NCBI GenBank assembly: GCA_947626825.1
Contig: CANQTM010000001.1
Location: 32,568 to 96,567 of the forward strand
Source of the DNA: an uncultured Bacilli bacterium
GTDB lineage: Bacteria > Bacillota_I > Bacilli_A > RFN20 > CAG-631
Length of the DNA stretch: 64,000 bases
Direction of reading: 5' to 3'
The position numbers were made by a program, and so were the translations under genes. The notes below the pieces were generated by a model that saw only the letters and a list, made by a program, of their open reading frames with translations, was not told where the DNA came from and did not search any database. Below are positions 1,882 through 64,000 of this stretch, in pieces. Each line of letters opens with the position of its first letter. The first letter of the stretch is position 1.

Positions 1882-2416
1882 TTCTCATCGAAAACGTGGA
1901 ATTTGCGTGGGGCTTTCAAAAAAAACTCTTCAAAATCATGGTGCTTCAAAACAAAAGTGAGAATATAAAACTTACTTTTGTTTTTTTATCCAGATATTTT
2001 GAAAAATGTAATTTTTTAAATAGTAACTGCATTTATTAAAATACAAGTAAATTCAATATTTATTATATAAAACAGATAAAAAAAGGCAATTTATTAAATA
2101 TTTATAATTTTTTTGGACATAATATTTTTAATCAAAAATACAGTTGATTTTTATGCAAAATCAATTATTAAAAGCTATTCAAAAACGTGGGGTTTTTCAA
2201 CCCCACGTCATGAACAGCTTTTTTTGACTCCACAAAAAAATAAAGCCGAATTAGTAATGCTAAATGATTATTAATTTAAATTAAAATACAATTTTAACAA
2301 AGTTTTTAATTAGTAACTTTTTTCCATATTTATAAAGTTTTTTTCCATTGTTAGCATATTTTCTTAATGATATATTTAAAAAGAAGACGAATATTTACAT
2401 GGAGGTATTTTGCTTT

Positions 2417-4438
2417 ATGAAAAAAATATTAGCTTTAACATTATTTCCATTACTTACTATGACCATTGCTGGATGTGGAAATAAAACTAATACTGATTCT
2501 AATAATAGTGGAGATAGTAATTCGCCAGTGACAACATGGCCTGAGGAACAACAAGAAGATATTTATGGTGTTTTACCTGAAGAAGTAAAAAATGCCAATG
2601 TTTCAATTGATTTGCTTGTTTACATTGAAGGCCAACAAAAGCGTCTTCCTGATATTGGAAATTTTTCTAATGATCCTAGTAAACCAGGATATAGATATTA
2701 TCCAAAAGATGTTTCAGCTATCGAATTGTCAACATTATTTGGGGCTGCTAATGCATTTAAAAAGTTGTGTCCAGGTGTTCAAATAAATTTATCTTTTTGT
2801 AACATTGATGATTATCCTGGTGCTGTAAGACAATATAAAGAAGCTAATGGCCATTTGCCACAATTAATGTTAGGAACAGAACACGTTGTACAAATGCTTG
2901 CACAAGGATATTGCTATGATTTATCACGTTATAGTGATAGTGCATATTATGAACAATATAACGATTATTTTATTTCAAGATTTAATTATGGTGGTTTTCA
3001 AGCAGCTTTTCCTGTATCAGCAAGTCCATGGGGAATTTTAACAAATGCAACAAGTTTAGAAGATTATAATATTATTTCATCAGTTATTGATCCAAATACA
3101 AATTTACCTTCTCAAGAATATAAAAATTATATAAATGATTTTACATGGGAACGTTTTGCAAAGACAGTTAAGGATACTAACGATAGAATAAATGATTACC
3201 ATGCTGGCATATCTAAACCAGTAGAATGGTTTGTTGATTATTCATTACCATCAATTTATGATCAATTCATAAGTACAGGTACTGTTGATTTTACATCAGA
3301 AGAAGCATTGGCAAAAATCACTAGATTATTGGAATATGAAAATGAAATTGCAAATAATGCTGTTTATAAATATGGTATTGATCCATCAAGTAATATAGTT
3401 TACACAGGAAATGAAGCATATTTTAATGGTGCTGCAGGTTGGAATGGTAAAGATAATTTTGTTGTAGATCAATATTGCACATTTTGGGGTGAAGCACCAT
3501 GGTCAATTGGTGTTGTTTCTTCAAGAGTACAAACTCTTAATGAAGAATATAATGAAGGAAAAACGACACAAGAAATTACAGAAAAATTTGATGTGCTTCC
3601 TTTTCCAAAATTTGATTCAAACAGCACAGCATATACAGGAATTGCAATTGATGGATATACAATTGGAAACCAATGTCCAATAGGCACTGAATGTACTGCA
3701 CAAAAACAATTAGAAATGGATGTTGCTGCATATTTTACAATGTTTCTTACTTTAGATCCTAGAGCAATTGAATCAAGAGCAAATATTCATTATATATTTA
3801 ATGATGAAGATTATTATGGTGAAGCCTCATTCCCATTATGTAAACAAGGATCTAGATTTGAATGGCAAGATAATCCAGAAGTTTCAAAAGATGATCCAGC
3901 AAAAGATTATGCAGATAATTGGCAATATAACATGGCTAACTATTTGAAAGTATACAATACATATATAACAAATGATGAGGAACCTGATGTTGTAACATTT
4001 AGAAATATTATGCCTGGTTTAACAGCACTTTTAGATAGTGTTTATGCAATAAATGGTATAGGTGATGATTATATCACATGTCTAAATTATTATAATGAAC
4101 CAGTAGATATTGCTGACGAAACAGGACAATCATCAACAGGCACAAGAGATATTTTCAAAAGATGGCAAGAAAGATATACTACTTTTGCTGATAAAGGGCC
4201 TGATGGTCAACCATCAACAGGAGTTTTAGGCACTAGTCAATATGTATCAAATGTTTTAGCTAATCTTGAAGATTTAGAAAATGATATAAATAAAAATTCA
4301 ATTGAAGCTTGGGCATATTTACAAGAATGCGTTGATGCATATTATGGAGAAGGTAATTACAAAATTATTGGAAAAGATTCCGATGGTAAAATTGTTGTCT
4401 TAAATGAGGCAAGAAATAATTATAAAGGACATAGATAA
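2417..4438 (+). CDS. Putative solute-binding-like lipoprotein, paralog B
   Basis: GGAGGT RBS lies 8 nt before the ATG at 2417. Signal peptide with lipobox LLTMTIAGC. Full-length paralog of 1..1836. Confidence 0.55.
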   Translation: MKKILALTLFPLLTMTIAGCGNKTNTDSNNSGDSNSPVTTWPEEQQEDIYGVLPEEVKNANVSIDLLVYIEGQQKRLPDIGNFSNDPSKPGYRYYPKDVSAIELSTLFGAANAFKKLCPGVQINLSFCNIDDYPGAVRQYKEANGHLPQLMLGTEHVVQMLAQGYCYDLSRYSDSAYYEQYNDYFISRFNYGGFQAAFPVSASPWGILTNATSLEDYNIISSVIDPNTNLPSQEYKNYINDFTWERFAKTVKDTNDRINDYHAGISKPVEWFVDYSLPSIYDQFISTGTVDFTSEEALAKITRLLEYENEIANNAVYKYGIDPSSNIVYTGNEAYFNGAAGWNGKDNFVVDQYCTFWGEAPWSIGVVSSRVQTLNEEYNEGKTTQEITEKFDVLPFPKFDSNSTAYTGIAIDGYTIGNQCPIGTECTAQKQLEMDVAAYFTMFLTLDPRAIESRANIHYIFNDEDYYGEASFPLCKQGSRFEWQDNPEVSKDDPAKDYADNWQYNMANYLKVYNTYITNDEEPDVVTFRNIMPGLTALLDSVYAINGIGDDYITCLNYYNEPVDIADETGQSSTGTRDIFKRWQERYTTFADKGPDGQPSTGVLGTSQYVSNVLANLEDLENDINKNSIEAWAYLQECVDAYYGEGNYKIIGKDSDGKIVVLNEARNNYKGHR

Positions 4439-4509: not shown

Positions 4510-4995
4510 TTAATTTTTGTTTTTCATATAATCAGTATCAATCATTTGATCGATTGTTACATCATCAACTTTAATTTTCAATTTAGTTTCACCAATAATA
4601 TCAATTAAATATTTATATTCGATATCTATAGTAATATTTTGATTTTCATAATTCATTGCAACACAAGTTGGATTTTTAACCACTTGGGCGTGAATTTCAT
4701 TTTTATCATTTAAAATAGTTTTTTCTTGAGTAAATGTATAAGGAATTTCATATTTGAAAGGGAATTGCATCTTGTACATTTCACAATTTGTGTCGTTGTC
4801 ATAACCATACCAAAAAAATGCATCGTATGTTCCTTCAATATATATATCTTGATTTTCTCGAGATAATTTGTAATTATGATTAATAATCCAACATCCTAAA
4901 ACTTTTGACACATCATGATTAACATTAACAGTTTTGGTTTCAAAAACATCTTTTTTTCCTTTAGCTATAATAGCTTTAGTTAAAATTTCTCTATA
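4510..4995 (-). CDS. Hypothetical protein
   Basis: ORF with ATG (MYREIL) preceded by GGTGAT. No recognisable motif. Confidence 0.4.
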   Translation of the reverse strand, partial: YREILTKAIIAKGKKDVFETKTVNVNHDVSKVLGCWIINHNYKLSRENQDIYIEGTYDAFFWYGYDNDTNCEMYKMQFPFKYEIPYTFTQEKTILNDKNEIHAQVVKNPTCVAMNYENQNITIDIEYKYLIDIIGETKLKIKVDDVTIDQMIDTDYMKNKN

Positions 4996-5050
4996 CATAC
5001 AAATCACCAATAAAAAATATGATGAAAATTTTAAAATTATTACTTAAATA

Positions 5051-25381: not shown

Positions 25382-25921
25382 TTATAAAAAATTTTCTTTT
25401 AAAAAATTACTAATTGTATCGATGCTTTTTTGTGATAAAGATATTTTACCGTTTGTTTGTTTATTCATTCTTGAAATACGTCTTTTACAAATAGAACGAA
25501 TTGCATCTACTTTTAAATATGAATGAGCATTGGCATTTTCTAAATTTAATTCATCAATAATACCCAAATCTAAACTTAATTTACTACTTGGAATTGGCTT
25601 GCTTGATAATGGAATAACTATAATATTACCTAAATCAATGGCCCAAACAACAGCATAATGTCCTTTTTTATTCATATCTGATAATTCAGTTCCTACATTA
25701 ATGCCAAATTCAACCCAAACAATGTCTCCTTTTTTTAAATCATCTGGTTGTGGTAAATAACTACTTTTTTGTAATGATTGTTTTAAATATGTTGTTTTTT
25801 TATCAAACCATTCTACAAATTCAGTGGCAATTTCACTATCAATATTTGCTAATTTTTTTTCAATGCTTTGTGTGACTTTAACAAATTTTTCTTGGGCCTT
25901 TTTGTCACGCTTATATTTCAA
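25382..25921 (-). CDS. MazF/PemK-like domain protein with ~60-aa N-terminal extension
   Basis: KKGDIVWVEFGINVGTELSDMNKKGHYAVVWAIDLGNIIVIPLSSK aligns to the EndoA/MazF core ([30 protein letters not shown]...AAITAQ). Starts 12 nt after rimO. Confidence 0.5.
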   Translation of the reverse strand: MKYKRDKKAQEKFVKVTQSIEKKLANIDSEIATEFVEWFDKKTTYLKQSLQKSSYLPQPDDLKKGDIVWVEFGINVGTELSDMNKKGHYAVVWAIDLGNIIVIPLSSKPIPSSKLSLDLGIIDELNLENANAHSYLKVDAIRSICKRRISRMNKQTNGKISLSQKSIDTISNFLKENFL

Positions 25922-31562: not shown

Positions 31563-33170
31563 ATGAAATATGTTTTTGTTACAGGCGGTGTTGTTTCAGG
31601 ATTAGGAAAAGGTATTGTAGCAGCTTCTTTAGGAAGATTACTAAAATGTAGAGGATTAAAAGTTGCAGCCCAAAAATTTGATCCTTATATGAATATTGAT
31701 CCTGGAACTATGAATCCAATTCAACATGGTGAAGTTTATGTAACTGAAGATGGCGCAGAAACAGATTTAGATTTAGGCCACTATGAAAGATTTATTGATG
31801 AAAATTTGACAAAATATTCAAACCTTACTAGCGGTAAGGTATTTTGGAAAGTTCTTAATAAAGAAAGGAATGGTGAATATGATGGACAAACAGTACAAAT
31901 TATTCCCCATGTTACAAACGAAATCAAACGATTTATTAAGAAAAATGCTGATTTAACACAAGCAGATGTTATGATTACTGAAATTGGTGGTACTATTGGT
32001 GATATTGAAAGTCAACCATTTTTAGAAGCAATTAGACAATTTTCTATTGAAGTTGGTCGTAAAAATTGTTTATTTATCCATGTATGTTTAGTACCATTTA
32101 TTGCTGGATCATATGAATTTAAATCAAAGCCAACACAACATTCAGTAAAAGAATTACAATCAAATGGTATTAATCCTGATATTATTATTACAAGATCTGA
32201 AACTGATTGTGGTGAAAAAATTCGTCAAAAAATAGCATTATTTTGCAATGTGGAAGAAGATTGTGTTATTCAAAATTCAACTGCTAAATGTTTATATGAA
32301 GTACCTTTGATGCTTCATAAAAATGGTTTAGATAAAGTTGTTTGTCGCAAATTTGGATTTAGAAAAAAATGTGATTTAACTATTTGGAAAGAAATGGTTA
32401 AGTCAATACATAGTAGAAAAAATAAAGTAACTATTGCCTTGGTTGGAAAATATGTTACTTTACATGATTCATATTTATCAATTATTGAGGCATTAAATCA
32501 TGCTTCATATGCTAATCATGTAAATGTTGAAATCAAATGGATTGATAGCGAAAAAGTAAAAAAATCAACTATTAAAAGCCTTTTTAAAGATGTTTATGGA
32601 ATTATAGTTCCTGGAGGATTTGGCAATAGAGGTATTGAAGGAATGGTTTTAACATGTCAATATGCAAGAGAAAAAAATATACCTTATTTTGGTATTTGTT
32701 TGGGCATGCAAGTTGCTGTTATTGAATATGCAAGAAATGTCGCAAAAATATCTGATGCCACTAGTGGTGAATTTTCAAATAATGGCAGTAAAGTTATTGA
32801 TATAATGGAAGATAAAAAAGGTAAAATTATTGGTGGAACAATGCGACTTGGTGCATATCCTTGTAAAATTAAAGATGATAGCATTATGCAAAGAGCATAC
32901 AATCAAGAACTTGTTGAAGAAAGACATAGACATCGTTATGAATTTAATAATGAATATAGAAAAATTTTAGTAGACAAAGGACTTTTTATTAGTGGAACAT
33001 CACCTGATAATAAAATTGTTGAAACTATAGAAGTAAAAGAAAACAAATTTTTTATTGGTGTTCAATTCCATCCAGAATTTAAAAGTAGACCTAATGCAGT
33101 TCATCCATTATTTTATCATTTTGTTAAATGCTCAATTGAAAAAATGGTAGGTGAGAATGTTGAAAAGTAA
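31563..33170 (+). CDS. pyrG: CTP synthase
   Basis: MKYVFVTGGVVSGLGKGI N-terminus. GATase domain GICLGMQ. Confidence 0.9.
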   Translation: MKYVFVTGGVVSGLGKGIVAASLGRLLKCRGLKVAAQKFDPYMNIDPGTMNPIQHGEVYVTEDGAETDLDLGHYERFIDENLTKYSNLTSGKVFWKVLNKERNGEYDGQTVQIIPHVTNEIKRFIKKNADLTQADVMITEIGGTIGDIESQPFLEAIRQFSIEVGRKNCLFIHVCLVPFIAGSYEFKSKPTQHSVKELQSNGINPDIIITRSETDCGEKIRQKIALFCNVEEDCVIQNSTAKCLYEVPLMLHKNGLDKVVCRKFGFRKKCDLTIWKEMVKSIHSRKNKVTIALVGKYVTLHDSYLSIIEALNHASYANHVNVEIKWIDSEKVKKSTIKSLFKDVYGIIVPGGFGNRGIEGMVLTCQYAREKNIPYFGICLGMQVAVIEYARNVAKISDATSGEFSNNGSKVIDIMEDKKGKIIGGTMRLGAYPCKIKDDSIMQRAYNQELVEERHRHRYEFNNEYRKILVDKGLFISGTSPDNKIVETIEVKENKFFIGVQFHPEFKSRPNAVHPLFYHFVKCSIEKMVGENVEK

Positions 33171-58008: not shown

Positions 58009-58599
58009 TTATAACAAGAAAAATTGAGTTTTCAATGTTTTTATATTTTTAAGTCCTTCATAAATAAAATTGCTAATTAAATAAATAAACCCACTAAATT
58101 CTATAATTGCAAAGATAACATATAAAATAATTCCAAAAATTAAACCAAGACATAATGAACTATAACTTCCTTTATAAAAAATTAATATGCTTATAGCAAA
58201 AAGCAAATATTTTCCAATAAAAGATACTAATAAAATAGTAAAAATTAGTAACTTTTTACTTAAAAAGTTCCAATTTATGAAAATAAACTTTAAACATAAT
58301 AAAATAGCAAAAAATATTAAAAATAATATAGGAGCTATATTTAAATTATTGAAAAAGGCACCAATGACATTCATAACGACTTGAAAATTAACAAATTCAG
58401 TTTGCCCTATTTCATGATATATTTGACCTACAATGCCATTATTTAAAATTGTATCTAATTCGTTTTCACTTAAACTATAACATTTAAATAAAGGAAGCAT
58501 TGCAATTAAATCTTTTATAATAAAAATTCCTGCCAAAAAAGCCAAAATAAATAGGCCAAAATTAATTATAAATTCGCATAATTTTTGATTTTTTGACAT
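58009..58599 (-). CDS. Hypothetical polytopic membrane protein
   Basis: About five TM helices. No motif recognised. Confidence 0.4.
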   Translation of the reverse strand: MSKNQKLCEFIINFGLFILAFLAGIFIIKDLIAMLPLFKCYSLSENELDTILNNGIVGQIYHEIGQTEFVNFQVVMNVIGAFFNNLNIAPILFLIFFAILLCLKFIFINWNFLSKKLLIFTILLVSFIGKYLLFAISILIFYKGSYSSLCLGLIFGIILYVIFAIIEFSGFIYLISNFIYEGLKNIKTLKTQFFLL

Positions 58600-58747
58600 T
58601 TAAATCACCAATAAATATTATAACTTTAAAATATTTGAAAGAAAACACTTTTCTATAATATTTAAAAATATTATTGAAAATCGCTTGCGTTTTGTGTTAT
58701 TATATTTAAGCGTATGTAGTATTTGTTTTTTTAGGAGGTATTACGTA

Positions 58748-59551
58748 ATGAAAAAAATTAAGGCATTTTTTGCTAGAGTTGGTAATTATATTAAAAATAC
58801 AGCTTGGATTCAACCTTTGTTGATTGTTATAGTTATTTTCGTTCTTTTATTTTCTTTAGCACCAATTACTGGTTGTACTAAATCATTTTGGGCTAGAGTA
58901 ACAACAGTTAATAAAATGGATAAAATTTCTTATAAAGAATATATTGAAAAAATTAAAGGTTCAAAAGAAGATGATAAATTTATCATTGTCTTTACTCAAG
59001 AAAATTGTGATGTTTGCCCTATGTTCTATAAAAATATGAATGATTATTTAAAAAATGATTATGGCAAAAAAGCACAAGATTTTGAAATTTTTAATGTTGA
59101 TTTGTCAACTAAATCTAGCAAAGTAAAAATTAATGGTTCAAAATATCAAGTTTATAAAGATAAGACATTAGGATTAGTTTCTCCTACAAGTTATGCAAGC
59201 AATGAAATTATTGCCCAAGATTATGCTAAAAAACTTGATGAAAGAATTAAAACATTCAATGAAAGAGCTTTTGATGGTGCTAATAGCAGTGAATTAGAAC
59301 CTGTAAGTGAAAGTGCTTATACATATTTATCAACTCCATTAGTTATTTGGTATGAAGGTGGTTTAGAAACTAGAATTTCAAATAAATATGATTCTCTTGA
59401 AAAACAATCAGATAACAAAAAAGTTAAAACAACTGAATTTAAAAAGTACATTGAAAACTTTGAAGGTGAAACTAAAGCTGAATGGAATGATGAATTTGAT
59501 TTAACATTCAGTGAATATAAAAACATTAAGGATGCATTTGAAGAGCACTAA
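58748..59551 (+). CDS. Membrane-anchored thioredoxin-like CxxC protein
   Basis: AGGAGGT RBS. N-terminal TM helix. Thioredoxin-fold-like FIIVFTQENCDVCPMF. Confidence 0.55.
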   Translation: MKKIKAFFARVGNYIKNTAWIQPLLIVIVIFVLLFSLAPITGCTKSFWARVTTVNKMDKISYKEYIEKIKGSKEDDKFIIVFTQENCDVCPMFYKNMNDYLKNDYGKKAQDFEIFNVDLSTKSSKVKINGSKYQVYKDKTLGLVSPTSYASNEIIAQDYAKKLDERIKTFNERAFDGANSSELEPVSESAYTYLSTPLVIWYEGGLETRISNKYDSLEKQSDNKKVKTTEFKKYIENFEGETKAEWNDEFDLTFSEYKNIKDAFEEH

Positions 59552-59573: not shown

Positions 59574-60230
59574 ATGAAAAAAGGATTTCTCCTTTCAATT
59601 ATTTTATTAGCAAGTTTTGTTAGTTGCGCTAATGAAAATGATTTGGCATTAAAAACTATCACCTACAAAGAATATATAAATAAAGTTTCTAATGAAGTTG
59701 AAAATGATAGAGATATATTTATTTTTACGACATCAACTTGCACACATTGTCAAAAAATTAGACCACTTTTAAATAAATATGTTGCTTTAAATCCAGATGT
59801 TAATATTTTTGAATTATCTTTAGATGTTAAAATTTCTACTTTTGGTGATAATACATATATATTTAAAGATAGTTCAATGGGATATTTCACTGGTGATGCA
59901 AAAGATGATTGTATAAAATCATTGGATAATCGTATTGCTTTATATGCTAATGCAAATAATTTAGAAAATAATTCTAGTACTAATGCTTTATATTCTCCAA
60001 TCGATATTGAAGGAAATAGCAAATATATGTATGTTTATACTCCATTAATTATTTTTTATGAAAGTGGTTTAGAAGTAAATATTATTAATAATGTTGAAAG
60101 TTTATTAACATATGATAAAAAAAATAAAATTGAATATGATTCATTTGCTAAAATATTTGAATTTCCAACAGAAAAAAATCAATGGGATAAACCATTTGAT
60201 TTAACTTATTCAACTGCTTTTACTCTTTAA
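59574..60230 (+). CDS. Thioredoxin-like CxxC lipoprotein (paralog of the preceding gene)
   Basis: Lipobox LASFVSC. IFIFTTSTCTHCQKI motif. Shares C-terminal blocks (PL[VI]I[WF]YE.GLE and FDLT[FY]S) with the upstream paralog. Confidence 0.55.
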   Translation: MKKGFLLSIILLASFVSCANENDLALKTITYKEYINKVSNEVENDRDIFIFTTSTCTHCQKIRPLLNKYVALNPDVNIFELSLDVKISTFGDNTYIFKDSSMGYFTGDAKDDCIKSLDNRIALYANANNLENNSSTNALYSPIDIEGNSKYMYVYTPLIIFYESGLEVNIINNVESLLTYDKKNKIEYDSFAKIFEFPTEKNQWDKPFDLTYSTAFTL

Positions 60231-60258: not shown

Positions 60259-60265
60259 TAAAAAA

Positions 60266-60876
60266 GTGATAAATAATCACTTAACGATTATATAAATCTA
60301 TATCAATACCGCATTTAGGAGGCAAACTATCACTAAGATTCCAAAACGTTTTATCAAATGTAGCGTTAATTTTTGTATAAGTTTGTGATTCATTGAATGG
60401 AAAATAAATAATCATTTCGTCTTCAAATTCAGGTATATCATAATAACTAATTGGAAAGACGCCCTCAGACCAAGATTGCATATATTCACCATTTGCAAAA
60501 ATATGATCAACACCACGAATATATGCTATAACTAAATTATAATTACAGTTTTCAGATTCAGATAAGTTGTTAATTAATTTTATTTCAAATCCTTTACTAT
60601 TAATAGATATAAACTCTACATCATAAGAAAAATCATATTCAAGATAATCATATTCACTATTGTTGACTTCCCATCTATCTCCAGGTGAATATTTTATAAC
60701 TTTTTCACCATTTGAACATGATATAAGAGGAATAGTCAAAGAAAGAATCATTATTTTTTTTAACATCTTCATTTCCTCCTTTGTTGTCATCATTATATCA
60801 TATTAAATGTTTATTGACAATTTATACAATTCACGATATTGTTAAAAAAATTAACCTGCAATATATGGAATTGTCC
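60266..60876. repeat. ~611 bp duplicated segment, copy A (~85-90% identical to 62704..63317)
   Basis: Carries the lipoprotein gene, its TTGTCA-17-TGATATAAT promoter and RBS, and a remnant of the 3' end of an upstream gene. Confidence 0.9.
60281..60772 (-). CDS. Secreted lipoprotein of unknown function, copy A
   Basis: AAGGAGGAA RBS lies within the annotated MMTTKEE, so the true start is MKMLKK. Lipobox LISC. Confidence 0.6.
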   Translation of the reverse strand: MKMLKKIMILSLTIPLISCSNGEKVIKYSPGDRWEVNNSEYDYLEYDFSYDVEFISINSKGFEIKLINNLSESENCNYNLVIAYIRGVDHIFANGEYMQSWSEGVFPISYYDIPEFEDEMIIYFPFNESQTYTKINATFDKTFWNLSDSLPPKCGIDIDLYNR

Positions 60877-61052
60877 ATTTAGATTTTCTTAGTTAATTTA
60901 GATTTGGTGTCATTTATTTGCCATTTTCTCAATTAATTTTTTTAGTAGAAAATCTAATTTTTTAAATTATATATATATTGTCAAATTGATTTATATATTC
61001 ATATTTTGCAAATGTAAGGAATGTAAAACAAATTTAAAAATTATAATTAGCA

Positions 61053-61355
61053 TTAAATTTGCTCATCGCTAGTACTACTTTTTTTAAATATTTGTTTAAT
61101 AATTTGATTTGCACCTGTAGAACTTGCACCACTTACAATTCCAACACCTAATGCAAACCATACATTATCTGCATTTAATATCATTTTAGGAGCAGTAAAA
61201 TAAATTAAAACACCCAATATGCCCCCAATAACTGCAACTAATATTGGAATCAATTTGTATGCTTCTTGCTTCTTTTTAAATAAAATCTTGTAAATTTCTC
61301 CTATGATATAGCAACATACAACTATAATAGGAACACATGTAAAATTCATCATCAA
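61053..61355 (-). CDS. Phage-type holin (phiLC3/A118 Hol-like, class with GxxxG-rich second TM helix)
   Basis: Three hydrophobic helices. LIPILVAVIGGILGVL...VGIVSGASSTGANQIIKQIFKK resembles the A118/phiLC3 holin family, recalled from memory. Confidence 0.45.
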   Translation of the reverse strand: MMMNFTCVPIIVVCCYIIGEIYKILFKKKQEAYKLIPILVAVIGGILGVLIYFTAPKMILNADNVWFALGVGIVSGASSTGANQIIKQIFKKSSTSDEQI

Positions 61356-61400
61356 TTAACCTCCTTCTTAAAATGAATTTTTAGTAATTTAAAATTTTAA

Positions 61401-61706
61401 TTATGTATTATCTAGTTTATACATGTCATCAACTCGTTTCGTAACATTAACTACTGACTCTTCAACTTTTGCAAGACGCTCAGCAATATTACGATCACGC
61501 TCATCTACTTTATTTAAGTTTTTTTCAACTCGATCTACACATGCTTTGATATAACCAATATCTGAAAACATCACCCCTTCTGTTTTACCATCAGTTCTTT
61601 GTTCTTGCTTATCGCTTCTTTTAAATGCTAAATAAGCAAATACAATACTTGAAATAGATGCAAAGAAACCTACTAAAATAACAATTAATTCAAAAGTCAT
61701 AACCAT
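61401..61706 (-). CDS. BhlA/UviB-like holin-like protein (N-terminal TM helix + charged coiled-coil tail)
   Basis: Architecture match: a TM helix at residues 4-27 followed by a Lys/Glu/Asp/Arg-rich helix. Confidence 0.4.
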   Translation of the reverse strand: MVMTFELIVILVGFFASISSIVFAYLAFKRSDKQEQRTDGKTEGVMFSDIGYIKACVDRVEKNLNKVDERDRNIAERLAKVEESVVNVTKRVDDMYKLDNT

Positions 61707-61865
61707 CAGCTCCTTAATCTTTTTGTTAAGAAATTTATTTCTTCATAAATAAGGAAACGAAAAGTTCAAAAGTACATGGTTTATTTTTAACTTTTTATTT
61801 TAATAAATAACATTAAAACAAAAAAATGTTAACGCCTTTTGGGCATTAACACTTTTAAAAAATTA

Positions 61866-62684
61866 TTAAAATATTTTATATGTTTTTGTTATATCATGTG
61901 ATTCGATGAAATCATTATATTCCACAATATCACAAGATCTATGAAATGCATTTAAAATTATTGATGCTATGTATTTTTTACTTTCATTTATTGTTTTAAA
62001 TGAAATAGGATTGTTAAATAATACCACGAGATCTACGTCGCTATTTTTGTGATATTCATTTTTATACATAGAACCAAACAAGAACATTGATTTAATTTCT
62101 TTTTCTACTAATTCATCTTTTTTACTTTGAAGTAAATTTATTATTTCTTCTTTTAAATTATGGTTATTTTCATTATTATTGATAAATAATGTATTAAAAT
62201 AACTATATAAAAAATATATACGAGAATTAACATTTTTTATTGTTTGATAAACTTCATACAAATTTGCTGGTGGTACACACGGATAATTGTATTGTCTTGT
62301 CAAATATATAGTCAATAGTAGAAAAAACAAATAACTTTCAGATGATGCCATTTCTTTAAATTTTATTAGATATCTATCTAACCATTCAAACACACGAATT
62401 CCTGGTTTTATTCTTTCAATTATTAAGTCAAGATTTACAATCTTCTTGTCATATATCATTTCAAAACATCTTTTATATTCTAATTCATTAGAATTAATTG
62501 GTAATGAATATATCATTTGGAACAATTTAAAATAATTTAATATTTCCTGATTAAAATTTGTATCGTTATTTTGTATTCTAAAAGTAATTTTCTTTATATC
62601 ATCGTATTTATGAACACCATAATAATTGTCATAAAATGATGATATTACTTTGCAAGGAAACGTTGAAGTATATGTTGTATCCAT
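61866..62684 (-). CDS. Protein with a C-terminal minimal nucleotidyltransferase (Pol-beta superfamily) domain and an N-terminal uncharacterised helical domain
   Basis: FLFGSMYKNEYHKNSDVDLVVLF fits the GS-x(9-13)-DhD NTase motif. Confidence 0.5.
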   Translation of the reverse strand: MDTTYTSTFPCKVISSFYDNYYGVHKYDDIKKITFRIQNNDTNFNQEILNYFKLFQMIYSLPINSNELEYKRCFEMIYDKKIVNLDLIIERIKPGIRVFEWLDRYLIKFKEMASSESYLFFLLLTIYLTRQYNYPCVPPANLYEVYQTIKNVNSRIYFLYSYFNTLFINNNENNHNLKEEIINLLQSKKDELVEKEIKSMFLFGSMYKNEYHKNSDVDLVVLFNNPISFKTINESKKYIASIILNAFHRSCDIVEYNDFIESHDITKTYKIF

Positions 62685-62703: not shown

Positions 62704-63317
62704 GTTATAAAATAATCACTTAATGATCGTATAAATCTATATCAATACCGCATTTAGGAGGCTCACTATCACTAGGATTCCAAAACAAATTATCAAATGT
62801 AGCGTTAATTTTTGTATAAGTTTGTGATTCATTGAATGGAAAATAAATAATCATTTCGTCTTCAAATTCAGGTATATCATAGTTGGGTCTTGGAAAGATC
62901 ATGCCTTCAGTATGAAATTGTATAAATTCACCATTGGCAAAAATATAATCCACTTCACGAATAGATGCTATAACTAAATTATAATTACAGTTTTCAGATT
63001 CAGATAAGTTGTTAATTAATTTTATTTCAAATCCTTCACTATCAATAGATATAAATTCTACATCATAAGAAAAATCATATTCAAGATCATCATATTCACT
63101 ATTGTTGACTTCCCACCTATCTCCAGGTGAATGTTTTATAACTTCTTTACCATTTGAACACGATATAAGAGAAATAGTCAAAGAAAGAATCATTATTTTT
63201 TTTAACATCTTCATTTCCTCCTTCGTTGTCATCATTATATCATATTAAATGTTTATTGACAATTTATACAATTCACGATATTGTTAAAAAAATTTACCTG
63301 CAATATATGAAATTGTT
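62704..63317. repeat. ~614 bp duplicated segment, copy B
   Basis: See copy A. Confidence 0.9.
62720..63214 (-). CDS. Secreted lipoprotein of unknown function, copy B
   Basis: Same promoter, RBS and signal peptide as copy A. Mature part ~85% identical. Confidence 0.6.
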   Translation of the reverse strand: MKMLKKIMILSLTISLISCSNGKEVIKHSPGDRWEVNNSEYDDLEYDFSYDVEFISIDSEGFEIKLINNLSESENCNYNLVIASIREVDYIFANGEFIQFHTEGMIFPRPNYDIPEFEDEMIIYFPFNESQTYTKINATFDNLFWNPSDSEPPKCGIDIDLYDH

Positions 63318-64000
63318 TCATTACACTTTATAACATTTCCATGACTATAATTACTTTTATAAACATTATAATATTGAGCATTATTAGGATCCTCTATTGC
63401 CTCATCATAAATACCATTTATAATGTCGTTCATAATAGGATAGTTTGTTAATTCGAATTCCATTTTGTCATTATGAATCCATGAATCTATCAAATCTTCT
63501 AATACTTGCAAACCAGTAACTAATAAAGCAGATTCTAAGTTGAAAGATGGCAAGCAACAATTTTTATAACAAGTTTTATATGTTCCATATTGGTAATAAC
63601 AATTTCCGCACATAAATTGTTTTGAGTTATAACATTCTAAGGACCTATCTGTTATACCAACAATTTTAGCGTTTTCAATATCGGTTTGTTCACCAATTGA
63701 AACTAATCCATCAAATGGATATTTATAAATACTATTTGGAATATATACACCATTATAATCACAATAACCAGGAATTACCTTGAACAAATGTCCTGAAACA
63801 CTTGAAATTACTGTTAAGTTAGGTCTATTTGATAATTTATTCCATCGTCCTTTAACATCATCGAAATAATCAGATTTAGCTAAGATCTCAACACATTCCT
63901 TATATTTTTTGGCAGTTCCTGGTTTGTCTTGAATTACTTCATACAAATCTGTTCCAAAAATTTTTGTAAGTACATTTACATTGATTAATTTTTTTGCCAA
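63284..64000 (-). CDS. Cys-rich hypothetical protein, N-terminally truncated by window end
   Basis: Open frame runs to nt 64000. Cys cluster CYNSKQFMCGNCYYQYGTYKTCYKNCC. Its last eight codons are duplicated upstream of lipoprotein copy A. Confidence 0.4.
   Translation of the reverse strand: MAKKLINVNVLTKIFGTDLYEVIQDKPGTAKKYKECVEILAKSDYFDDVKGRWNKLSNRPNLTVISSVSGHLFKVIPGYCDYNGVYIPNSIYKYPFDGLVSIGEQTDIENAKIVGITDRSLECYNSKQFMCGNCYYQYGTYKTCYKNCCLPSFNLESALLVTGLQVLEDLIDSWIHNDKMEFELTNYPIMNDIINGIYDEAIEDPNNAQYYNVYKSNYSHGNVIKCNETISYIAGKFF

Follow-up and report, generated by a model that had tools for sequence, protein, structure and literature searches.

A Hol44-family holin gene and its conserved partner as a probable toxin release module in a chromosomal locus of an uncultured Bacilli bacterium

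Examples of toxin release that depends on a holin come from a few pathogenic clostridia and from the type 10 secretion systems (T10SS) of Gram-negative bacteria, and the mechanism is still debated. Here we describe two adjacent small genes in a 64,000-nucleotide stretch of DNA (hereafter the window) from an uncultured gut bacterium of the Bacilli, positions 32,568 to 96,567 of contig CANQTM010000001.1 in GenBank assembly GCA_947626825.1. One gene encodes a holin of the Hol44 family and the other a small membrane partner, and both lie within a chromosomal locus of toxin-like genes. We consider it probable that this pair is a domesticated phage lysis module, shorn of its endolysin, that serves as the release device of the toxin locus. 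The two genes are:

61401..61706, minus strand: partner gene, a 101-residue open reading frame (ORF) with a likely start at 61700 that gives 99 residues
61053..61355, minus strand: Hol44-family holin gene (Phage_holin_5_2), a 100-residue ORF with a likely start at 61349 that gives 99 residues

An initial annotation of this DNA had picked out these two ORFs as neighbours, and both are real: each is preceded by an AAGGAG(G) ribosome-binding site, and gene callers working on identical metagenome contigs chose ATG starts that yield 99 residues for both proteins. The intergenic gap from partner to holin is 45 nt in the window. The holin had been described as a three-helix protein with a Lys-rich tail. 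Two strongly hydrophobic segments, at about residues 1-19 and 35-53, and the Lys-rich C-terminal tail (KQIFKKSSTSDEQI) agree with that description, while the third segment, at about residues 58-80, is weaker and rich in Gly, Ala and Ser. The partner is built as described, with a single N-terminal transmembrane (TM) helix at residues 7-25 followed by a highly charged helical region (16 K/R and 17 D/E); this soluble domain probably faces the cytoplasm, because positive charges directly follow the TM helix.

Profile searches support the word holin for the 100-residue protein and revise both of the family labels first given to the pair. Against Pfam, the 100-residue protein matches Phage_holin_5_2 (PF16079, the Hol44 family of holin superfamily V) at 48.9 bits, above the cut-off of 29.2, over model positions 1-76 of 76, and against PHROGs it matches the holin families phrog_1129 (3.8e-13) and phrog_1299. 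By these profiles it is a true holin of the Hol44/Phage_holin_5_2 family, with predicted membrane-lesion activity. It had been assigned to the A118/phiLC3 type; the Pfam scan gave no match to Phage_holin_1 at E<=1, although the same model recognised a genuine member, in viral locus L113, at 7e-30. As to a TcdE-family holin, Phage_holin_5_2 was the sole family matched in that scan. The partner, first labelled BhlA/UviB-like, has no match to that family (Pfam Holin_BhlA; TCDB 1.E.27) at E<=1 and instead matches phrog_1863, a PHROGs family of 'unknown function', over its full length at 5.7e-17. Its score against XhlA (PF10779) is 15.4 bits, below the 34.7 cut-off, and covers the helical part alone. 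Judged from these matches, the partner belongs to phrog_1863 and is weakly XhlA-like; XhlA is a membrane protein thought to act jointly with the holin (PMC5589764).

Phage relatives of the partner share 26-33% identity with it when drawn from isolated phages; in 53 IMG/VR contigs the identity does not exceed 47%. In the contexts examined they are encoded directly 3' of tail genes and directly 5' of a holin and an endolysin, and phrog_1863 proteins occupy such cassettes in Clostridium phage phiCp-B and Bacillus phage LY4. Viral loci L103 and L113 carry a Holin_SPP1 or Phage_holin_1 holin and then an Amidase_2 endolysin, and in viral locus L071 a small ORF of no assigned family precedes the Amidase_2 endolysin. 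The order of partner before holin is common to the window, phiCp-B, LY4 and the viral contigs, and by this synteny the pair corresponds in its arrangement to the two leading genes of a PBSX-like xhlA-xhlB-xlyA lysis cassette.

Chromosomal relatives of the pair stand at the head of operons for large toxins. The partner has 557 detectable homologues, the best 120 of which are 71-94% identical to it, and a scan of one genome per species recovered 41 loci. In 39 of these the partner is 57-94% identical to that of the window, forming a chromosomal clade distinct from the phage relatives, and all 39 come from gut metagenome-assembled genomes (MAGs) labelled Bacilli, Anaeroplasmataceae, 'uncultured Mollicutes', Erysipelotrichaceae, CAG:449 or CAG:324. 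A Hol44 holin adjoins the partner in 36 of the 39. A same-strand ORF of at least 1000 residues lies within about 3 kb downstream of the pair in 33 of them, and the other six contigs end too soon. The large ORFs of the 33 loci encode signal-less proteins of 1,000-2,400 residues, and among about 45 large ORFs there is not one with a hydrophobic signal sequence at its start. RHS/YD-shell identity was found for both large ORFs scanned with Pfam and for several annotated on related contigs; some of these RHS proteins bear PT-HINT together with a toxin tip that varies (LHH, for example), and in L049 a SUKH-3 immunity protein follows the RHS toxin. The stretch between holin and toxin is occupied by one or two nucleotidyltransferases or else by an aBig_2 protein with a Mur-ligase-like protein. 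Neither the seven accessory ORFs scanned nor the Pfam annotations on related contigs include an endolysin or peptidoglycan hydrolase, and several genomes contain two or three pair-led loci. The initial proposal of a stand-alone holin pair that works without a lysin in toxin release is thus well supported by comparative genomics (33 of 39 loci), whereas its family assignments, A118/phiLC3 and BhlA/UviB, do not hold.

The loci with the aBig_2 protein form a second subfamily (L031, L033, L043, L044, L047-L051 and others), in which the nucleotidyltransferases 3' of the holin are replaced by an aBig_2-domain protein (N-terminus MNEFKDR..YPNRK) and a Mur-ligase-like enzyme of about 450 residues, followed by the large toxin ORF. 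Upstream, a different protein of about 250 residues takes the place of the small sigma-like gene described below.

Both genes of the pair appear to be maintained by purifying selection, in the window strain as elsewhere. In comparisons with seven orthologous loci, the partner has a dN/dS of 0.045-0.15 and the holin one of 0.16-0.39, and the soluble domain of the partner has 28 invariant positions among 28 sequences.

The pair is embedded in ordinary chromosome. The G+C content of the window is 21-31%, and the 40 ORFs scanned with Pfam are ordinary chromosomal genes, among them those for DnaB, L9, GdpP, ComEC, the DNA polymerase III delta subunit, CTP synthase, glutamine synthetase III, acetate kinase, NusA, RimP, RbfA, Maf and RNase J; the housekeeping flanks comprise Alr, RbfA, NusA, RNase J and CNNM transporters. 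No phage structural, integrase or lysin gene occurs among these 40 ORFs, as had been stated in the initial annotation, and neither the window nor the related loci examined yielded a peptidoglycan hydrolase or a spanin. That annotation had also raised the prospect of a complete prophage contiguous beyond the window end. We rejected this on the strength of a metagenome contig, L001, that is 99% identical to the window and reaches about 1.6 kb past its end: the visible part holds a sigma-like gene, beyond which lies the N-terminal part of an ABC-3C CTD6 gene. Two close relatives, L117 and L119, have the same upstream layout as L001, with metabolic genes further out.

The absence of a lysin would be trivial in a wall-less host, a possibility raised by the 'Mollicutes' and Anaeroplasmataceae labels of related MAGs. 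We rejected it in view of genes in the window for CotE, alanine racemase (Alr), BacA and a DUF368 undecaprenyl-phosphate translocase-like protein; the host is therefore most likely a spore-forming, wall-bearing member of the Bacillota, and the missing lysin is meaningful. The CotE spore-coat gene lies at 4510-5010 on the minus strand in a genome of about 25% G+C, whose relatives often carry these labels in MAG records, which suggests that the labels are loose.

On the minus strand, the order of the locus is sigma-like gene, hydrolase, lipoprotein 1, 272-residue nucleotidyltransferase, terminator, pair and lipoprotein 2, and two thioredoxin-like genes converge on it from beyond lipoprotein 2. 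Its further features are:

63284..64000, minus strand: C-terminal 238 residues of a 421-residue lipase-like hydrolase; the gene runs past the window end and the full ORF is in L001
63234..63262, minus strand: sigma-70 promoter of lipoprotein gene 1, TTGTCA-17-TATAAT with an upstream TG (extended -10), 11/12 matches
62720..63235, minus strand: lipoprotein 1, candidate immunity protein, 171 residues, lipobox LISC
61866..62684, minus strand: accessory 272-residue protein with an N-terminal Fic/Fido-fold domain that lacks the canonical Fic motif and a C-terminal MntA-like minimal nucleotidyltransferase
61822..61856, minus strand: intrinsic terminator after the nucleotidyltransferase gene, a 15-pair stem and then a T run
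61740..61782, minus strand: conserved promoter-like motif AAACCATGTACTTTT-N-TTTTCGTTTCCTTATTTATGAAGA of 43 nt, upstream of the pair
60963..61066, minus strand: stump of a nucleotidyltransferase gene, MSKFNANYNF and then a stop (61066-61034)
60794..60874, minus strand: upstream part of a duplicated segment, holding the final ~26 nt of a hydrolase gene (60842-60867) and, again, the sigma-70 promoter (60792-60820)
60281..60793, minus strand: lipoprotein 2, an orphan copy of the candidate immunity protein, 170 residues

The Cys-rich ORF noticed near the pair in the initial annotation is present and proves to be the C-terminal part of the hydrolase, in which C306, C317, C327 and C331 are conserved across the family. 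The family alignment also shows an invariant GHSQGG motif (Ser152), an invariant Asp280 and a nearly invariant His403. The hydrolase scores 24.2 bits against PGAP1, essentially at the cut-off of 24.3, and a profile search of the PDB returned Burkholderia and Pseudomonas lipases at 3e-7. Its AlphaFold2 model has a pLDDT of 91, with family I lipases of Proteus, Pseudomonas and Burkholderia as best Foldseek matches; a match to Tle3 is insignificant (E 0.019). The hydrolase and the homologues examined have no hydrophobic N-terminus that could serve as a signal peptide, and a scan of the genome collection using the 421-residue protein gave zero matches. Its fold, as judged from these comparisons, is that of a signal-less lipase-like alpha/beta hydrolase with Ser-Asp-His, and we regard it as a candidate cargo toxin.

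The pair lies between duplicated lipoprotein genes, as first annotated; the two copies are 92% identical in DNA, and the differences of lipoprotein 2 from copy 1 cluster at residues ~90-118 and at the C-terminus. Each copy stands under its own near-consensus extended -10 sigma-70 promoter, as expected of immunity genes, and a lipobox lipoprotein is encoded within one or two genes 3' of every hydrolase homologue examined (L001, L007, L015, L016, L021 and L022). Hydrolase and lipoprotein would thus be a secreted lipase-type toxin and its surface-exposed immunity protein.

The convergent thioredoxin-like genes, at 58685-59551 and 59574-60230 on the plus strand, encode paralogous CxxC proteins, one a lipobox lipoprotein and the other TM-anchored, with weak similarity to TrbB and to the PedC/BrcD disulfide isomerases of bacteriocin maturation. 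They might oxidise the Cys-rich hydrolase or the lipoproteins, and none was seen adjoining the locus in other species.

The sigma-like gene, which lies outside the window in L001, encodes a protein of 155 residues that matches Sigma70_r4_2 at 6.9e-9 and a generic sigma70-ECF superfamily model at 46 bits (cut-off 42.9). The promoter-like motif upstream of the pair has a counterpart ahead of the hydrolase gene in L001 that is 88% identical over 67 nt. Its consensus reads TAGACCrTGTACTTTT, 4-5 variable bases and then TTTTCGACTCCTTATTTATGAAGAG, with conserved blocks that include ACTTTT and CTCCTTAT, and the spacing is strictly fixed in the 18 distinct versions found across loci. Instances with both conserved blocks occur 5' of the pair or of the hydrolase gene, and only in loci with the sigma-like gene. 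In the window a short hairpin follows at 61728-61743. A structured RNA leader was considered and set aside: the motif matches no Rfam family, and in L026 it abuts the ribosome-binding site, which favours a promoter over a leader. The simplest reading is that the motif is a promoter for the dedicated sigma-like regulator. It is tandemly duplicated 5' of the pair, 85 nt apart, in L007 (9859 and 9944) and also in L010-L012.

The window strain has lost part of the locus. In its closest relatives, L117 and L119, whose hydrolase and nucleotidyltransferase are 73-77% identical to those of the window, the order is ABC-3C genes (divergent), sigma, hydrolase, lipoprotein, nucleotidyltransferase, partner, holin, two nucleotidyltransferases and a large ORF; the large ORF encodes a 2405-residue RHS/YD-shell protein in L117 and in L119 is an unannotated 1855-residue ORF that reaches the contig end. 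In the window no RHS/YD-shell core is present and the largest ORF has 726 residues. By blastn, homology to L021/L022 (84%) covers the promoter region, the pair and about 100 nt of the next nucleotidyltransferase gene and ends at 60963. This end point, the gene stump and the intact arm of the relatives together show that an arm of two nucleotidyltransferases, an RHS toxin and its immunity gene was deleted. An 88-nt gap separates the stump from the duplicated segment (60260-60874), a 92%-identical second copy of the hydrolase-gene end, the sigma-70 promoter and the lipoprotein gene, so that what appears to be an orphan immunity-type module now occupies the place of the deleted arm. The same junction is found in the independent samples L001, L003 and L116 and is therefore not an assembly artefact. 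Other loci present other combinations of arms: lipase and RHS in L021 and L119, RHS only in L008, L009 and L023-L028, and, in L117, an intact RHS arm beside a broken lipase arm in which the hydrolase gene is split; the window has the lipase arm only. The constant core consists of regulator, partner and holin, and the cargo arms vary.

We propose the following working model. The small sigma-70-family regulator would activate the two promoters that share the 43-nt motif, those of the hydrolase gene and of the pair. The holin, aided by its single-pass partner, would then permeabilise the cytoplasmic membrane, and the folded toxin would leave the cell, as the giant signal-less RHS toxin would in related genomes, either by a non-lytic holin pathway or by death of a subpopulation in which host autolysins open the wall. 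Lipoproteins made from their own housekeeping-type promoters would shield the outer face of sister-cell membranes against the lipase, and the Fido+MNT nucleotidyltransferase probably controls one of the components by nucleotidylation. Our data are compatible with a non-lytic as well as with a producer-killing mode of release.

A more far-reaching version of this model, which we put forward tentatively and hold to be rather less likely than the model itself, is that the pair constitutes a two-protein, hydrolase-free export route for folded, signal-less antibacterial toxins of the RHS and lipase-like kinds, driven by the sigma-like regulator through a specific promoter and gated by the Fido+MNT protein: a Gram-positive counterpart of the T10SS and a new mode of polymorphic-toxin secretion. 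In the literature searched, whose coverage is incomplete, there is no account of RHS operons headed by a holin pair in Firmicutes or of a locus of this kind, and a 2022 review of holin-mediated translocation does not mention Rhs, XhlA or Hol44 (PMC9527704). Here the holin is of another family, its single-pass partner is unusually conserved, a wall hydrolase is lacking, and the pair invariably stands first in the polymorphic-toxin operons of many uncultured gut Bacillota. Such a route, if real, would account for the exit of signal-less RHS toxins from Gram-positive cells, no type VII secretion signal being present in the loci. The polymorphic-toxin field would gain a further secretion route, and non-lytic holin transport could be studied in a minimal system of two proteins whose promoter and regulator are defined. 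With the pair kept after the loss of the RHS arm, the window strain would be a natural 'lipase-only' version.

By its gene content, the locus resembles several known systems and appears to be a member of none. TcdE, TpeE and TcsE secrete signal-less clostridial toxins (PMC9527704, PMC8878733). The pathogenicity locus (PaLoc) of Clostridioides difficile, with the sigma factor TcdR, the holin TcdE, the endolysin remnant TcdL and the toxins TcdA and TcdB, is, like the TcsE and TpeE loci, a chromosomal toxin locus with a phage-derived holin (PMC9527704, PMC3369941, PMC8878733), and it shares with the window locus a signal-less cargo, a dedicated sigma-type regulator, a role that we infer here, and the lack of a functional endolysin. 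In contrast to the PaLoc, the holin here is of the Hol44/Phage_holin_5_2 family rather than of the TcdE (TCDB 1.E.19) or BhlA (1.E.27) family, a second membrane protein (phrog_1863) is obligatory, and the regulator lacks demonstrable membership of the TcdR family. The cargo also differs, consisting of the lipase-like hydrolase and RHS toxins with immunity genes instead of large glucosylating toxins, and such cargo indicates antibacterial use. For kinship of the regulator with TcdR or UviA there was no support: tblastn against plasmids and phages gave region-4 matches alone or nothing. The UviA-UviB-Bcn5 loci of Clostridium perfringens combine a sigma factor and a small holin with an antibacterial protein that lacks a signal, for each of which there is a candidate equivalent here, and the N-terminal TM helix and charged helical tail of the partner recall UviB in architecture alone. 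Bcn5 loci, however, always carry an N-acetylmuramoyl-L-alanine amidase (PMC9527704), and neither such an amidase nor a BhlA-family match was found here.

The PBSX element of Bacillus subtilis (xhlA-xhlB-xlyA) and the phage cassettes with phrog_1863 proteins likewise place a small membrane partner directly 5' of the holin, but they follow tail genes and end with an endolysin, in whose place nucleotidyltransferases and toxins are found here. In T10SS, exemplified by Serratia ChiWXYZ, Salmonella TtsA and Yersinia YenLC, a repurposed lysis cassette releases large folded proteins, which is the likeness proposed for the window locus, and the Yersinia cassette releases Tc toxins that include RHS-repeat-containing TcC subunits (PMC10847048). 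A T10SS consists of a holin and a peptidoglycan hydrolase, often with spanins, in Gram-negative bacteria, whereas in this Gram-positive-type Bacillota locus no hydrolase or spanin was found. The Tle/Tli lipase effector-immunity pairs of type VI secretion (T6SS) and the orphan toxin-immunity modules of Rhs and contact-dependent inhibition (CDI) systems offer two further parallels: a candidate Ser-Asp-His lipase-like toxin followed by a lipoprotein, and a second lipoprotein copy that retains a 3'-end fragment of the toxin gene. Here there is no T6SS, and the immunity role of the lipoprotein is putative.

Several points weigh against a role in toxin release. The cargo, of 47 kDa or more than 200 kDa, must cross the peptidoglycan without a dedicated hydrolase, and in PBSX XhlA, XhlB and the endolysin XlyA are all needed for lysis and vesicle release (PMC5589764). 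The profile support for the regulator comes from sigma region 4 and a generic ECF-superfamily model, with no detectable similarity between the 155-residue protein and UviA or TcdR, and the lipoproteins match no family profile, known immunity families included. RHS toxins, the main class of cargo, are deleted in the window strain. Distant hydrolase-lipoprotein modules exist with no pair nearby (L016, L017), the one in L015 sits inside a phage genome, and an ABC-3C conflict system flanks the island. Finally, the organisms are known from MAGs alone.

Three other explanations have to be set beside release of toxins by the pair. One differs from it solely in the fate of the producer and is in this sense a sub-variant: the pair would translocate nothing and would kill the producing subpopulation, and the toxins would leak out once host autolysins had broken the wall, as with colicin lysis proteins and YenLC. 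Hol44-family holins are phage lysis proteins, a dedicated channel or ATPase is nowhere in sign, and specialised Yersinia cells provide a precedent in their T10SS-dependent lysis (PMC10847048). Yet none of the loci examined encodes a peptidoglycan hydrolase, TcdE and TpeE are able to act without lysis (PMC9527704), and the extreme conservation of the soluble domain of the partner points to specific contacts between proteins rather than to mere damage of the membrane; we regard lysis as the sole activity as unlikely. The idea that the pair is a functionless remnant of a decayed prophage lysis cassette beside unrelated genes draws on the descent of both proteins from phage lysis-cassette families and on the decay visible in the window, where a nucleotidyltransferase stump and a duplicated fragment remain. 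It is very unlikely, given the strong purifying selection on both genes, the hundreds of homologues at 75-94% identity, the synteny with toxin operons in dozens of species (some genomes having several paralogous loci), the promoter motif common to the pair and the hydrolase gene, and the absence of any other phage gene in the window or the related loci.

An abortive-infection or defence island is the remaining alternative, in which regulator, nucleotidyltransferase, hydrolase and pair would act as a suicide module by membrane damage, with ABC-3C as its sensor. An ABC-3C operon (MC2/CTD6 or DUF2326/MC7/CTD11) does lie divergently upstream of the regulator in most loci of the sigma type, the trio of hydrolase, lipoprotein and nucleotidyltransferase is found in a phage genome (L015), inserted in the manner of a moron, and the MNT domain matches the PADLOC candidate family PDC-S09. 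PADLOC recognised no system, however, and holin, partner and hydrolase have no match there; a known defence system was discarded as a candidate, the generic MNT domain being all that was matched. The tightest and most general associates of the pair are RHS polymorphic toxins and immunity genes, a hallmark of interbacterial competition, and lipoproteins with constitutive promoters are better explained by immunity to a lipase that is secreted than by a suicide effector inside the cell. We therefore consider a defence function improbable, and release of toxins by the pair remains the reading that we prefer.

Some observations on the neighbouring modules may be added. In L001 the N-terminus of ABC-3C CTD6, just past the window end, occupies 2-103 on the minus strand; it is divergent and 94% identical to related loci. 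Fuller sets of ABC-3C genes are found at 2926-6146 in L007, 5332-8558 in L117 and 586-3737 in L119, with a variant at 5991-8455 in L008. They encode an ATPase of about 600 residues together with MC2 and CTD6; a single case has DUF2326, MC7 and CTD11 instead. That the position is kept though the subtype varies hints at a functional coupling of ABC-3C to the locus rather than at shared ancestry alone. The phage-borne trio in L015 (10001-14336) is followed by Amidoligase_2 and GGACT genes and sits between the small-terminase/methylase genes and the large terminase gene of a real phage genome; the candidate toxin-immunity module is therefore mobile and phage-borne.

Elsewhere in the window, two large ORFs on the plus strand, of 582 residues at 88-1836 and 696 residues at 2348-4438, have no Pfam match at E<=1e-5. 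A 196-residue ORF that adjoins the locus at 58009-58599 on the minus strand appears multi-pass by eye, with no match at E<=1. At 25382-25921, on the minus strand, a 179-residue protein carries a MazF/PemK-like toxin domain with an N-terminal extension of about 60 residues.

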